A stretch of DNA of 64,000 nt from Flaccisagitta enflata (lineage: Eukaryota), in contig OZ231126.1 in assembly GCA_965153355.1 (NCBI GenBank), positions 17,360,001-17,424,000 of the forward strand. The letters are read 5' to 3'. Of this stretch, positions 50,201-56,200 are shown piece after piece; the first letter of the stretch is position 1; each line of letters begins with the position of its first letter. A model generated the notes under the pieces. The model searched no databases, was not told the DNA's origin, and saw only the letters and a list, made by a program, of their open reading frames with translations. The position numbers and the translations under genes were made by a program.

Positions 50201-53200
50201 TACGCAGAGGGTCAAACTTACAAATTAGAAATAGATAAACTGTGTGAGGGTTTTCCTGTCCAACTGTTTTGTGTCCACGTCCGTATGTTCATCCCGTTTT
50301 CATTAAAATACCATATTGCGCCATTTGTCAGTTTACATACTGTATAACTCGGTCCATATTGCATGGTGCATACCGTCATATCCTTTCCTTTTCTCACCCA
50401 ACGATCTTAACAGTTTCACTACGTTCAGCGTGGATGAGACTTACGTCCAAAACCGTCTTCAGCTGTCTTTTACGCTCCTTTTGACAACCGTCTCCTTCAA
50501 ATTCGTCATCAACAGAACCGTCCCTCGACTCTCCTATCTCACATCTCTTGATAAGTACGTAGATGGGGAAAGAAGAGTGTAGGAAGCATAAATGCTTTCC
50601 AGGCAAGAAAAGAAGAAAGAAAGAAAGCAAACAAGCAAGCAAGCAAGCAAGCAAGCAAGCAAGCAAGCAAGCAAGAAAGAAGGAAAGAAAGAAAGAAAGA
50701 AAGAAAGAAAGAAAGAAAGAAAGAAAGAAACAATGATTTGACAAAAACATGAAAAAATAAAATGTGACCAACCAACCAACCAACCAATCGAGTGACCGAC
50801 AAACCGACGGGCTGGATAGTCGCGTAACACGCGCCTAAAAAGGTTACAGACGGAGTTACCGACCGACAAAGCATCGAAAAAAAAGAATAATAAGGGAAAG
50901 ATTTTAGATTAAGTGAAGAACTATCAGCAAGCTTCCTTGCACCCAAACGGCCAAAAATGTAACAGGCGTACGTTCTTTTTATCGGTCTTGCTATTGTATT
51001 TCCTCTTGGTCATATAATCATCGGCAAAAAAGTCGAAGTCAGTCTTCAACTTTTTGACATATTCGAGAGAAATAGGGTTTTCATTTTCTTATTAGGAAGT
51101 TGGGGATCTCCACCAATCGAATGTGGCCTCCAATGAAATTGATAGGGTAAGTAAATTTGATAATTTTCTTTCACATGGCACCAAGCAGAATGCTCTACGG
51201 CAAATATTTTTTGCGTTATGAATTTTTGAAGATTTATTTACAAAAAATTCAAATTGAATTTTTTTCTATTTTTTATGATTTTCAGTAGGATCAATAAAGG
51301 AGTGTATTTAAGTTTGTTTGAGCATGCAAATACAAGAAAACGTATTTATGAGCATAACTGCTCATCTGTGAGGGTGTTTTTGAGCATTTTAGCTCATTTA
51401 GCTCATTTAGCTCAGTCTGTTTTTCTGATTTAAAATACAAAAAATGAGTAAATATTTATATACATGTTTGAGCATGCAAATACAAAAAGCATGTCAGTGA
51501 GCAAAGCTGCTCATCTATGAGGGTGTTTTTGAGTGTTCTAGCTCATTTAGCTCATTTAGCTCAGTCTTTTTTTTTTCTTTTTTTTTTTTAATGGGATAAA
51601 TGAATAAATGTTTTGATGTGAGCATGCAATTTAGCTCATCAAGCTCATTTGGCTCAGTCATATTTTTCTCTGATTTGCAGTGCCATCAATACATACAATT
51701 GGCCCTGATTTGATCTAACAAATAAAAAGATTTGCAATGGCTGAAAACAAAAACCTAGTGAAAAGTGACCGATGCTTACGACTTTTTTCCTCACGGCGAC
51801 AGCCGCCAGTACTGGTATGTAAGTCATGGCAAAAACCAGATAATCAATCTTTTGCACTCGGAGGAGAGACAACCTGTTTCTCTCGTTATTTTCTCTCCCA
51901 CTGCTTTTTGCGATTTTCAATTCTTTTCAAAGATCGGAAAACCAGTTTCAAATCATTTGATTTCAAAACTTATGTCATACATTCCAAGCATTTGCGCTTC
52001 AGAGAGTTGTAATGAACAAGCTTTCAGTGTTGATAGCAAACCTGATTTCTCGCTGTTCAGACATGGCTTTTGTCAAGTTGCTTTTCGTACTGGCAGCGGG
52101 GGTGTTGTCTTTGACGTTAATGCGCACTCAAGCTCTCACTATCACGGACCCCGGCGACGATTTCTATTTCAAGTTAGAAACTGGTCAAATGCTCATAGAA
52201 AACGAGTCCTTTGACCTCTACTGCCCAAAACTCTCACGTGTCAATGAGGATGATTACGTTTTTTTCCCCGGACTTTGGTACGAGACCGAAAAGGGCCCAA
52301 ATTCGACTCTTTTGTTCGTTCCGGACATTGATAATCCCGGTGATAAAGGTGTCGACTGCGGCGACGTCCGATTCAATTGCTCCCATTGGGGTTGCGCCAA
52401 CGAGGTGGTTCAAAAGGAAAACTGCGAGCGAATGATGTCACTCGTGAATTTTGAAACTCAGAAAAAATCAACAACGATTCCGTATGAATTTTTTGAAAAA
52501 TCCAAACAACCAATACATTCTTCAAAACCGATCGATTTTGTAAAGTTCACTATTCGCGCGATTATGGAATTTGCCCCGGGATACTTTCACTGCTCCAACG
52601 GATCTTTGCTGACTCCAAAAGAAATCGCAACGTCCACCTTCATTGACCCAAAAGACAGCATTTTCAAAATGCCAAAACACACGATCGGTTCATAGGATAC
52701 AGCCGCTTTCGACTACTTCACCTTCTCTGGAGTCGAGATTTCAGCGTGGTGATCAATAACTCCATAGAGTTCGACGTTTCTCGGCCTGAACCGATCGTAG
52801 GTCAGAACCATCAAATCAGGTGTCGTGCTAACATACGAGGCAAGGGCGATATGATTATCATTATCAGTAATCGAGTATCCGGAAGCTACGGGAGAGGATG
52901 TTTTGTGTTCGACGATCACTGGTGCACGAATGACAATCGCGCTAAATTGTATGACGATTTGCAAGGATGCCATCTCTATTACCGGATTTGGTACAAAAAC
53001 CATCCAACCAGAGAATCCAACCAGTACAGGAAGTACGATACCTACTCAGTTTTAAAAGCCGAATACCCTTCTTCCATAAATGTTCTCGAACATCCCTGCA
53101 AAACCAACAACAAGCCCTCTCGATGTCCTATTACACTTACGGATCCGGATGACGATTTCACTTTTGAGTTACCAGAGGGTCAACTTGTGATTGAAAACGA

Positions 53201-56200
53201 AACTTTTGACCTTTATTGTCCAAAACTTTCACTTTCCAATGAAGACGAATACTTATTTTTCCCTGGTCTTTGGTACGAGGAGAAAAAACCGCTCTTTGTG
53301 GGTGAAGAGTGGGTTCGAAATTCAGTTCTCTTATTCGCTCCGGATCCTAACACTCCCGGCAACGAGGGTATCAACTGCAGCAGCGCTCAATTTAATTGCT
53401 CCTTTTGGGATTGCAAGGACAATGTCTTTCAGAGAGACAACTGCGATTCAATTTTGTCCCTTTTGAACTTTGAAATTGTGAAGAATTCATCAACAATTCC
53501 GTACCCATTCTTCGACAAATCCAAAGTACCGATACGTTCCTCGAGACCATTCGATTTTGTAAAATTCACAATTGGTGCGAGAATGAAATATGCCCCCGGG
53601 GCATTCCACTGCTCCAACGGATCCATGCTCCGTCCAAACTTGATTGCATCGTCAACGTTTTATCCCTTAGATGAGGCCATTTTCAAAATGCCAGGAGCAC
53701 ATTCTCGATTTGTAACTTGGACTAATTACTATGGAGTAATTACTATGCCTCATGAATTGTGGAGTCGATATTTCGGCGTCGTAGTGAATAATTCATTGGA
53801 GTTAAAAGTCTACCGGAGAGAGTTAGTCGAAGGTGAACGTCATAGTATCAACTGCAATGCAAATATGCGGGGCAGTGCCCGTATGAGTATATGGATGAGC
53901 CAAGGACACGTAAAAAACTGCCGTGTGAGACACGACTATTATAATTATTGCCGGTTTGACTCTGTTGCTACTTTGAGGGATCGCCTTGAGAATTGCACAC
54001 TTTATTACCAAGTGCAGTATGATAACCATCCGGAAAGAGATAAATCCTCACAGTTTGACAACTACAACCTGTTGGATACGAATTACCCTTTTCCCATTAA
54101 CATACTTGCCAAACCAACGACACAAGCATCATTAACAACGATAGACTCAACGACGGCCTTGACAACGCAGACAGGAAAAGAAGAAACTTGGGCTCCATCA
54201 TCATCAAAAGTGACGGCGAAAGAAGATGAAACCGTTAAAACGACAATAGAAACGACGCCAAATATGATGCAAAATACAGCCACCTCTGACTCCATGGCTG
54301 CAACAACAACAACCATATCAACGCAGACAGGAAAAGAAGAAACTTGGGCTGCATCATCACCAAAAGTGACGGCGAAAGAGGATGAAACCGTAAAAACAAC
54401 AATAGAAACGACGCCAAATATGATGCAAAATACAGCCACCTCTGACTCCATGGCTGCAACAACAACAACGATATCAACGCAGACACTAAAAGAAGAAACT
54501 TGGGCTCCATCATCACCAAAAGTGACGGTGAAAGAGGATGAAACCATAAAAACAACAATAGAAACGACGCCAAATATGATGCAAAATACAGCCACCTCTG
54601 ACTTCATGGCTTCAACAACAAGGACGATATCAACGCAGACAGGAAAAGAAGAAACTTGGGCTCTATCATCACCAAAAGTGATGGCGAAAGAGGATGAAAC
54701 TGTAAAAACGACAATAGAAACGACGTCAAACATAATGCAAAATACACCTACCTCTGACTCTATGGCTGCAACAACAACAACGACATCAACGCAGACACTA
54801 AAAGAAGAAACTTGGGCTCCATCATCACCAAAAGTGATGGCGAAAGAGGATGAAACCATGAAAATGACAATAGAAACGACGTCAAACATAGTGCAAAATA
54901 TACCCACCTCTGACTCCATGGCTGCAACAGCAACAACGATATCAACGCAGACAGGAAAAGAAGAAACTTGGGCTGCATCATCACCAAAAGTGATGGCGAA
55001 AGAGGATGAAACCGTAAAAACAACAATAGAAACGACGCCAAATATGATGCAAAATACAGCCACCTCTGACTCCATGGCTGCAACGACAACGACAATATCA
55101 ACGCAGACAGGAAAAGAAGTAACTTGGGCTTCATCATCACCAAAAGTGACGGCGAAAGAGGATGAAACCCTGAAAACGACAATAGAAACGACGCCAAACA
55201 TAATTCAAAATACACCCACCTCTGATTCCACAGCTGCAACAACAATGACAATATCAATGCAGACAGGAAAAGAAGTAACTTGGGCTCCATCATCACCAAA
55301 AGTGACGGCGAAAGAGGATGAAACTGTAAAAACGACAATAGAAACGACGCCAAACATAATTCAAAATACACCCACCTCTGACTCCATGGCTGCAACAACA
55401 ACGACGATATCAACGCAGACACTAAAAGAAGAAACTTGGGCTCCATCATCACCAAAAGTGACGGCGAAAGAGGATGAAACCGTAAAAACGACAATAGAAA
55501 CGACGCCAAATATGATGCAAAATACACCCACCTCTGACTCCATGGCTGCAACAACAACAACGATATCAACGCAGACACTAAAAGAAGAAACTTGGGCTCC
55601 ATCATCACCAAAAGTGACGGCGAAAGAGGATGAAACCGTAAAAACGACAATAGAAACGACGCCAAATATAATGCTAAATACAGCCACCTCTGACTCCAGG
55701 GCTGCAACAATAACGACGACATCAACAAAGGAAACGATGATGGAAATGACGGTGGAAACGACAAAGGAACCGACAAAGGAACCGACAAAGGAAACGAGGG
55801 ATACGACGATGAAGACATCAGCGGAGAGGACGACGGAAACGACGACGGAGACGAGGACGATGTTGACGAATGAGAGGACAGAAGGGATAGCGATCGGTAA
55901 CTCACCGTCAATGACCGTAAATATGGGTACGACAAAAATAACTTATTCCATCGAGACAACCCGCAGTAGCCCGGCTTCAACACACCTTGCCCCAGGAACT
56001 GATACATTTTCGTCGGAGAAACTTCCAGGAGGATCTGAGGTCTAGACGTCCGTCACTAAGGCTACTGCGGATTTTCTTCACCTCTCAACTACATCTTCAT
56101 TCACCTCCACATTGTCTTTCGAGGAGGAGGAGAAGGAAGGGGAGGAAGAGAAGGAAGAGAAGGAGGGAGAACTTCCGACGTCATCTTCTAAACCGTCTAC

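Follow-up and report, generated by a model that had tools for sequence, protein, structure and literature searches.

What kind of protein is built from a cysteine-rich module that matches no described family? The question is raised by a plus-strand gene that dominates 52.0-56.6 kb of a stretch of Flaccisagitta enflata contig OZ231126.1 (17,360,001-17,424,000). This whole stretch of 64,000 nt is called the window below, and all coordinates are window positions. The gene holds two tandem modules of about 330 aa each (52135-54116). In order, it consists of a predicted signal peptide, module 1, module 2, a mucin region, a candidate intron, a transmembrane (TM) helix, and a tail with a poly-Asn run and Tyr motifs. 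On balance, we consider it probable that the gene is metazoan and encodes a type I membrane glycoprotein, a recognition or adhesion receptor with two modules on a mucin stalk, from a very small, divergent, and undescribed lineage of the immunoglobulin superfamily (IgSF), and that the copy in the window is probably null.

Two tandem copies of an old module

The two copies of the module lie side by side:

52135 to about 53126, + strand: module 1, in two reading frames
53127-54116, + strand: module 2 (P0003), 330 aa

BLASTP aligned their N-terminal parts with 112 of 189 residues identical (59%, E 8e-82) and their C-terminal parts with 56 of 145 (39%, E 7e-30). FFPGLWYE, FNCS.W.C, APG.FHCSNGS, LWSR.F.VV.NNS.E, and Y.NHP.R are present in both, and the 6+4 cysteines of module 1 align with all 10 of module 2. 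The initial annotation, made from the letters alone, had reported a tandemly duplicated Cys-rich module of this size with these motifs conserved and every cysteine aligned, and it was right on both counts. Searching the whole window by tblastn with the modules recovered the two copies and no third one, the next best match having an E of 0.15.

Nei-Gojobori estimates between the modules gave a dN/dS of 0.23 at a dS of 1.1 for the first part (179 codons) and a dN/dS of 0.20 with saturated dS for the second part (133 codons). The duplication is therefore old, and both copies have long been under purifying selection. The modules are joined by CKTNNKPSRC (53100-53126). Its two extra cysteines, nine residues apart, are missing after module 2 and could close a small disulfide loop.

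Leader, stalk, and predicted membrane anchor

Outside the modules, the gene has the following parts:

52063..52134, + strand: predicted signal peptide, translated as MAFVKLLFVLAAGVLSLTLMRTQA
54117..56039, + strand: mucin-like stalk, 641 aa, with 27.9% Thr, 10.3% Ser, and 5.3% Pro
56040..56123, + strand: candidate 84-nt GT..AG intron, containing the in-frame TAG 56043-56045, with phase kept across it
56124..56612, + strand: predicted last exon, with an acidic juxtamembrane stretch, the TM helix, the cytoplasmic tail, and a stop codon
About 56247-56327, + strand: predicted TM helix LLIIIIVIVSLIFVIFVVLLVICIFMC, 27 hydrophobic residues, hydropathy maximum 3.84
56386-56507, + strand: (AAC)n run coding for poly-Asn in the cytoplasmic tail (Tandem Repeats Finder, TRF; period 3, 40.7 copies, 93% matches)

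Two ATG codons in the same frame could serve as the start, one at 52063 and one upstream at 52012. The hydrophobic maximum falls at about residues 23-37 of the open reading frame (ORF), and the cleavage site is putative, not the output of a prediction tool. A second frame is open for 1132 codons (52647-56045) and takes in the rest of module 1, the whole of module 2, and the long Thr-rich region. Within the stalk are ten tandem repeats of 52 aa (156 bp) at 54163-55726 (TRF; period 156, 10.0 copies, 92% matches). The gene thus has the long Pro/Thr/Ser-rich repeat region between head and TM helix by which mucin-domain membrane glycoproteins are recognized, and a stalk of this composition could be O-glycosylated.

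The frame of the stalk reopens directly after the TAG at 56043, and removal of the 84-nt interval would anchor the protein in the membrane. The TM helix is followed by a basic stop-transfer sequence, RLHNKRD, and the tail ends ...TYISFQSSQSSHIYSEID, with Tyr motifs spaced as YISF-x8-YSEI. The initial annotation had proposed an Ig-like head on a mucin stalk. The plan of head, stalk, TM helix, and tail is real, with its TM part hanging on the candidate intron. The coding (AAC)n microsatellite yields a run of about 35 Asn within an Asn/Asp-rich stretch of about 40 residues and likely varies in length between individuals. A poly-A RNA run of the same study had 0 reads on the gene among 12.2 million records, which are about 6% of that run and too small a sample to judge expression.

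A frameshift interrupts module 1

Module 1 is not read in a single frame:

52135..52677, + strand: V-like subdomain of module 1, up to ...IFKMPK, in the frame of 52012
52675..52680, + strand: frameshift site, where the coding frame moves by one base; the old frame ends at TAG 52693-52695
52680..53126, + strand: remainder of module 1 in the second frame, with the end of the V-like subdomain (HDRF...LWSRDFSVV), the second beta-sandwich subdomain, and the CKTNNKPSRC linker

The conserved ...STFIDPKDSIFKMP of module 1 belongs to the frame of 52012, which codes through ...IFKMP (to about 52676). The conserved HDRF...HLLWSRDFSVVINNS (HDRF...LWSRDFSVVINNS) belongs to the other frame, from 52680 on. 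This shift of 1 nt, which had gone unmentioned in the initial annotation, sits in the F-G loop region of the module. As the gene stands, its product would be just a secreted fragment of 227 aa.

The frameshift is present in DNA reads. In run X1, one contig of 2211 nt (51789-53999) has a k-mer depth of 81.8 and shows 0 differences and 0 gaps relative to the window. The shift is thus carried by the reads and did not arise in polishing, although the window may itself have been assembled from sample X1, which would then not be independent. A second sample, X6, has contigs over bins 52657-52834 at a depth of about 40 and without any listed indel or difference, in a piece that may not span the shift. 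X6 is from the same organism and covers only two stretches of the gene, 52657-52834 and 53547-53635, at depths of 39-60, with the upstream repeat at full depth. These stretches hold the LWSR region and the FHCSNGS motif, the most conserved parts of the family. The gap over the rest of the gene could be a hole left by the contig filter, which would prove nothing, or could reflect a divergent allele or paralogue.

Splicing does not offer a way around the shift. Among the GT..AG pairs around 52676-52680, checked by eye, none has a suitable length and phase while sparing conserved residues. Introns at 52632-52654, 52632-52702, and 52688-52737 are compatible in phase and were rejected, as they would remove residues conserved between the modules (STF...IFKMP or LWSR), and one at 52688-52695 would be just 8 nt long.

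Could the gene nevertheless be intact and functional? The shift might be an error common to the assembly and the same-sample contigs, a point on which the possible identity of X1 with the assembly's sample bears, or it might be bypassed through ribosomal frameshifting or a rare intact allele. The 1132 codons still open past the shift, with their past constraint, are consistent with this. However, the X1 contig carries the shift exactly, the X6 contigs across 52657-52834 list no indel (with the caveat that the piece may not span the site), and CCAAAACAC is not a slippery site of the canonical form X XXY YYZ. We regard an intact gene as unlikely. We read this copy as, most likely, a null allele or pseudogene of recent origin; the 3.4-kb frame, intact apart from the shift, speaks for a young lesion.

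Relatives of the module are rare

A phmmer search of 1,835,955,588 representative proteins found only four relatives, all of them fragmentary (114-315 aa; E 2.8e-32, 1.6e-21, 2.3e-20, and 4.7e-10). Two of the relatives, P0005 and P0008, open with hydrophobic leaders and continue directly into the module, and in one relative the single module is succeeded by a Ser/Thr/Pro-rich stretch. A head set on a stalk therefore seems to characterize the family. The family alignments show no variation at C31, P32, P46, G47, W49, C84, C91, C106, and G158-F-H-C-S-N-G-S166, positions that include two conserved sequons, NCS and NGS. Pfam gave no Ig family at E≤1 for P0005-P0008.

Relatives were also sought in nucleotide collections and in the literature. 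P0006 was the sole return of a profile search of a word-indexed sequence collection and comes from one ENA contig of 1029 nt. Word-indexed searches at near and longer lengths gave 357 and 1116 candidates, none scoring. The patterns FHCSNGS[LM] and the IENE..DLYC region found no relative in JGI metagenomes. The gene is also matched by three contigs of a close relative from a marine metagenome, 161-231 nt long and with 7, 15, and 16 differences. The 24 differences listed for them change 18 codons, 12 non-synonymously and 6 synonymously. The motifs FHCSNGS, FPGLWYE, and FPGLWFE were not found in 8.1 million PMC papers or 0.36 million preprints.

The initial annotation had also raised the possibility of a viral envelope glycoprotein, and a viral or endogenous-viral origin would fit the combination of a glycosylated head and a mucin region, which occurs in some viral glycoproteins. 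Herpesvirus gC is among the BFVD matches, with an E of 2.7e-4. However, the BFVD matches are only virus-borne Ig-like proteins of a host-derived type, all with E≥2.7e-4 and weaker than the cellular ones. The pattern used found no relative among 2.9 million viral contigs of IMG/VR. None of the 122 other ORFs of the window has a Pfam domain above cutoff, and thus no viral or retroelement gene lies nearby; nor does the gene have a fusion subunit. The viral proposal was not borne out, and we consider such an origin highly improbable.

Predicted fold of the module

We modeled module 2 (P0003) with AlphaFold2 (AF2) on a family alignment, A3. The model has a predicted template modeling score (pTM) of 0.60. 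The predicted local distance difference test (pLDDT) reaches at least 70 at 100 of 330 residues, nearly all in 18-170 and 211-220. Across residues 21-170, it is 62-87 in 12 of 15 ten-residue blocks and 49-56 in the other three. It is 70 for block 211-220, 36-47 for residues 171-210, and 41-57 for residues 221-330. The features below follow from the model, with strand labels that are our own assignment from the DSSP string:

53127..53792, + strand: predicted V-set-like Ig subdomain of module 2, P0003 residues 1-222, modeled core 16-222 (C31, W49, C162)
P0003 residues 26-32: strand B
P0003 residues 47-53: strand C
P0003 residues 64-71: strand C'
53340..53462, + strand: Cys-rich insertion after C' and before the next strand, P0003 residues about 72-112, with a helix at 99-110 and pLDDT 62-87
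P0003 residues 113-124 and 136-150: further strands
P0003 residues 158-163: strand F
P0003 residues 164-210: F-G loop of about 45 residues, poorly predicted; module 1 is broken here
P0003 residues about 211-220: strand G
53793..54116, + strand: predicted second beta-sandwich subdomain of module 2, P0003 residues 223-330 (C243, W256, C265, C275, C290)

Structural comparisons place the first subdomain near Ig V domains. Foldseek returned 273 PDB matches at E≤0.001, and those listed are, by title, T-cell receptor (TCR), antibody, or CAR chains. The best of them has an E of 2.9e-5 and a prob of 1.00, with a low TM-score since two domains are superposed. VIA-align, a search independent of Foldseek over 48,161 chains, found 247 chains at Z≥5 and 0 at Z≥8. 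Of its 50 listed rows, 43 are Ig V-domain chains lying on model residues of about 16-222. MPZ/P0 is the best there (Z 7.3, rmsd 3.6, 114 of 121 residues aligned), and the other V matches include CAR D1 (Z 7.0, or 7.0-7.5 with the second comparison below), JAML (7.1), CD8 (7.0), and Nav beta2/3/4 (6.4-6.8). In a second structural comparison, the maximum Z was 7.7, for a TCR V domain (rmsd 3.0, 104 residues).

The model is a two-sheet Greek-key sandwich with which V domains align almost end to end, as expected of a V-set domain, and the Cys-Trp-Cys pin is present. C31 and W49 are 18 residues apart and C162 is preceded by APGAF-H, as seen directly in both modules, and all three are invariant in the family alignments that cover them. 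We take C31, W49, and C162, with Y/F-x-C, to be the V-frame pin at IMGT positions 23/41/104. The initial annotation had likened FDLYC, LWY, and PGYFHC to Ig strands B, C, and F, and had suggested AlphaFold with Foldseek as a check. FDLYC, GLWYE, and PGAFHC indeed fall on the strands assigned as B, C, and F, and the predicted fold is a beta-sandwich rather than something else. The disulfide-rich insertion that it had noticed is the four-Cys segment between C' and the next strand. Of the 5 sequences compared, all have C84, C91, and C106 and 4 have C96; these cysteines would pair in disulfides. We conclude from the model, with moderate confidence, that the N-terminal 205 or so residues of each module form an Ig V-set-like sandwich.

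The second subdomain is all-beta in the model. C243 and W256 are 13 residues apart, C290 is present, and C265/C275 are an extra pair. Seven of the 50 listed VIA-align rows are lipid-binding C2 domains on residues 220-330 (Z 6.4-7.2), and Fab constant domains match the subdomain in two-domain alignments (Z about 7). An ESM Atlas search with residues 205-330 put 9 of the 10 best named clusters in the Ig clan at scores of at most 0.79, a weak lean that the Atlas search with the whole module shares. As modeled, the subdomain is probably Ig-like, of the C2/I-set-like kind. For the second Ig-like domain proposed earlier, the model thus gives a low-confidence beta-sandwich that C2 domains and Ig constant domains fit alike.

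Evidence against an IgSF receptor

Several results weigh against reading the gene as that of a functional IgSF receptor. No link to the IgSF is visible in sequence: Pfam returned 0 families at E≤10 for all three pieces (P0001, P0002, and P0003), so that its V-set, ig, and I-set profiles fail to recognize the module, and a PDB profile search gave only a chance match (E 1.5). To this extent, the initial annotation's failure to recognize the module was well founded, as these searches yield no strong match to a described family. Alignment A3 is shallow, with seven rows of which several are fragments, and AF2 run on the single sequence P0003 was unusable (pLDDT 30). Every structural Z lies below 8, where the tool warns that a match can mean a mere common arrangement. 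The second subdomain is poorly modeled (pLDDT 41-57) and fits lipid-binding C2 domains equally well. The membrane anchor needs the putative 84-nt intron, whose donor is weak (GTCTAG), and the unspliced protein would stop at TAG 56043 as a secreted mucin. The tail does not fit the consensus of immunoreceptor tyrosine-based activation or inhibition motifs (ITAM/ITIM), quoted in PMC9546547 as Yxx[I/L]x(6-9)Yxx[L/I] or [I/L/V/S]xYxx[I/V/L]. Its first motif, YISF, has F in place of I/L at its end, and at position -2 the two Tyr are preceded by Q and H, neither of them I/L/V/S. Finally, with the frameshift, this copy may do nothing at all.

These results raise the question of whether the module is an independent Cys-rich beta-sandwich outside the true IgSF, AlphaFold and the aligners being drawn to the commonest sandwich. 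This would account for Z scores below 8 throughout, the absence of similarity by hidden Markov model (HMM), and the shallow alignment. It also agrees with the Atlas search of the whole module, whose scores are weak (at most 0.83) and whose recognition of 1360 is well under 2300, a value attained by 91 in 100 proteins from known families. On the other hand, the C-x17-W spacing and the G.F.C before the second Cys, invariant in the relatives, fit the V-frame pin, and the alignment takes in nearly the whole of a target V domain (114 of 121 residues). In the same Atlas search, 7 of the 10 best family-assigned matches share a family or clan with the best, and the search with residues 205-330 leans to the Ig clan. 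We therefore rate an independent sandwich as doubtful.

A second alternative is that the gene encodes a mucin secreted as a gel or coat, with Cys-rich domains at the N terminus and translation ending at TAG 56043, the TM ORF being unrelated or alternatively joined. The in-frame TAG 56043-45 and the weak candidate donor are what this proposal predicts. It leaves unexplained why the frame reopens at once into a textbook TM helix, the basic stop-transfer RLHNKRD, and a tail, and why the 84-nt GT..AG interval preserves phase; the frameshift problem is untouched either way. A secreted mucin is, in our view, quite improbable, and we continue with the membrane-anchored IgSF-like receptor.

Comparison with known receptor systems

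The initial annotation had compared the gene with TIM-type and invertebrate recognition receptors. TIM proteins, as described in PMC10576709, are type I proteins whose N-terminal V-type Ig domain has extra, non-canonical Cys and is combined with a mucin domain, a TM segment, and a Tyr-bearing tail without classical ITIMs. The present gene resembles them (e.g. TIM-3) in its V-type Ig domain with extra Cys, mucin domain, TM helix, and Tyr-bearing tail without ITIM. However, TIM has one IgV, whereas here there are two modules of a V domain plus a second sandwich. The extra Cys of TIM clamp the CC' and FG loops, whereas here they lie in an insertion of about 40 aa after C'. The stalk here is also much longer and built of 52-aa repeats. 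The search of PDB chains, among which are TIM structures, gave no sequence match at E≤10, and no TIM chain is among the fold matches listed. The plan is thus alike, but the duplicated two-domain head and the lack of a sequence match speak against membership in the TIM family.

Judged by predicted fold, the best matches are the V-C2 ectodomains of CAR/JAM/CTX and single-V proteins such as myelin P0 and the Nav beta subunits. The alignment with CAR D1-D2 extends across both subdomains (3j6o: 173 residues, Z 7.2). Structural alignments with these proteins have only 4-14% identity. The gene departs from them in a V domain roughly double the usual size, in a domain pair that is duplicated and carried by a mucin stalk, and in the lack of any match to the Pfam V-set, I-set, or C2-set profiles.

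The Alr family of Hydractinia offers a third comparison. According to Huene et al. 2022 (PMC9546547), the type I proteins of this family are confined to one lineage, and their tandem Ig domains were missed by sequence profiles and found via structure prediction; the family includes many pseudogenes truncated by frameshift or nonsense mutations, and its tails have Tyr motifs. The gene in the window is likewise an invertebrate gene, predicted to encode a type I protein, with tandem Ig-like domains invisible to sequence searches, a frameshifted copy, and a Tyr tail. It differs from Alr in three respects. Every Alr domain has an exon to itself, whereas the present gene encodes everything from the signal peptide through both modules and the stalk in one. 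The membrane-proximal region is Fn3-like in Alr and a mucin repeat array here. The Cys-Trp-Cys core is kept here.

An intact protein of this kind might work as follows. After the signal peptide would come the two ancient tandem copies of the module of about 330 aa, each an enlarged V-set-like Ig domain of about 205 aa followed by a smaller beta-sandwich, probably C2/I-set-like. The V-like domain would keep the canonical Cys-Trp-Cys core and add an insertion of about 40 aa after C', with four extra Cys and a helix, and an F-G loop of about 45 aa. The modules would be carried by the mucin stalk of about 640 aa, beyond which a single TM helix would lead into a tail bearing two Tyr motifs. The membrane-distal V-like domains of such a glycoprotein may bind a ligand carried by another cell or by a particle, with a variable face made up of the insertion and the long F-G loop. 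The stalk would lift the heads above the glycocalyx, and the tail may couple to endocytosis or to signaling through SH2 domains.

A more speculative extension is that this undescribed marine-invertebrate IgSF lineage, with a V domain doubled by a disulfide-locked insertion and a CDR3-equivalent F-G loop, could form a fast-evolving and polymorphic set for self/non-self or pathogen recognition, with presence/absence and null alleles as in Alr or Botryllus. Hints in this direction are the 12 non-synonymous against 6 synonymous codons of the metagenomic relative, a frameshifted allele in a constrained gene, and the two short pieces that are all X6 shows, though absence from X6 is not proven. We think it improbable on the data at hand.

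Several recognition systems of invertebrates came to be understood through lineage-specific Ig domains that sequence searches do not see. This family would further illustrate how far V-type domains can drift, to double size and with a disulfide-locked insert, while retaining the Cys-Trp-Cys core, and it would offer a candidate recognition or adhesion receptor of a marine animal. As the evidence stands, it adds one to the orphan IgSF-like surface glycoproteins, with a copy that is probably broken, and the gain is modest.

Genomic surroundings

The window is eukaryotic, rich in microsatellites, poor in genes, and about 39% GC. Besides the mucin-stalk gene, only one conventional gene fragment was recognized:

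63202-63999, - strand: terminal exon of Fez1/LZTS coiled-coil type, running off the window end (PF06818, E 1.6e-15, 58.6 bits against a cutoff of 34.4)

Fez1/LZTS is a metazoan family, and this exon therefore indicates an animal host. A Pfam search of the 122 other ORFs of the window gave one sub-threshold match to Atrophin-1 and nothing else. For the tail ORF, matches to V_ATPase_I, CD34, and others were all below their cutoffs and are ascribed to TM and low-complexity sequence. An open frame of 297 codons at 42532-43425 (+ strand) has several hydrophobic, TM-like segments, matches no Pfam family above cutoff, and may belong, as one exon, to a multi-pass membrane protein not yet described.

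Just upstream of the gene, at 51589-51855, lies a repeat of very high copy number. In the organism's two DNA runs, its summed contig depth is 0.8-2.6 million, where the gene has about 82; in a marine-metagenome run, the depth of the repeat is 45,000-115,000. One copy with 83% identity lies at 16579-16851. Scans of the window for tRNA genes and Rfam families, this repeat included, gave no match. Downstream of the gene, an 81-bp satellite array at 58925-60000 has 13.7 copies with 96% matches and extends past the scanned stretch.

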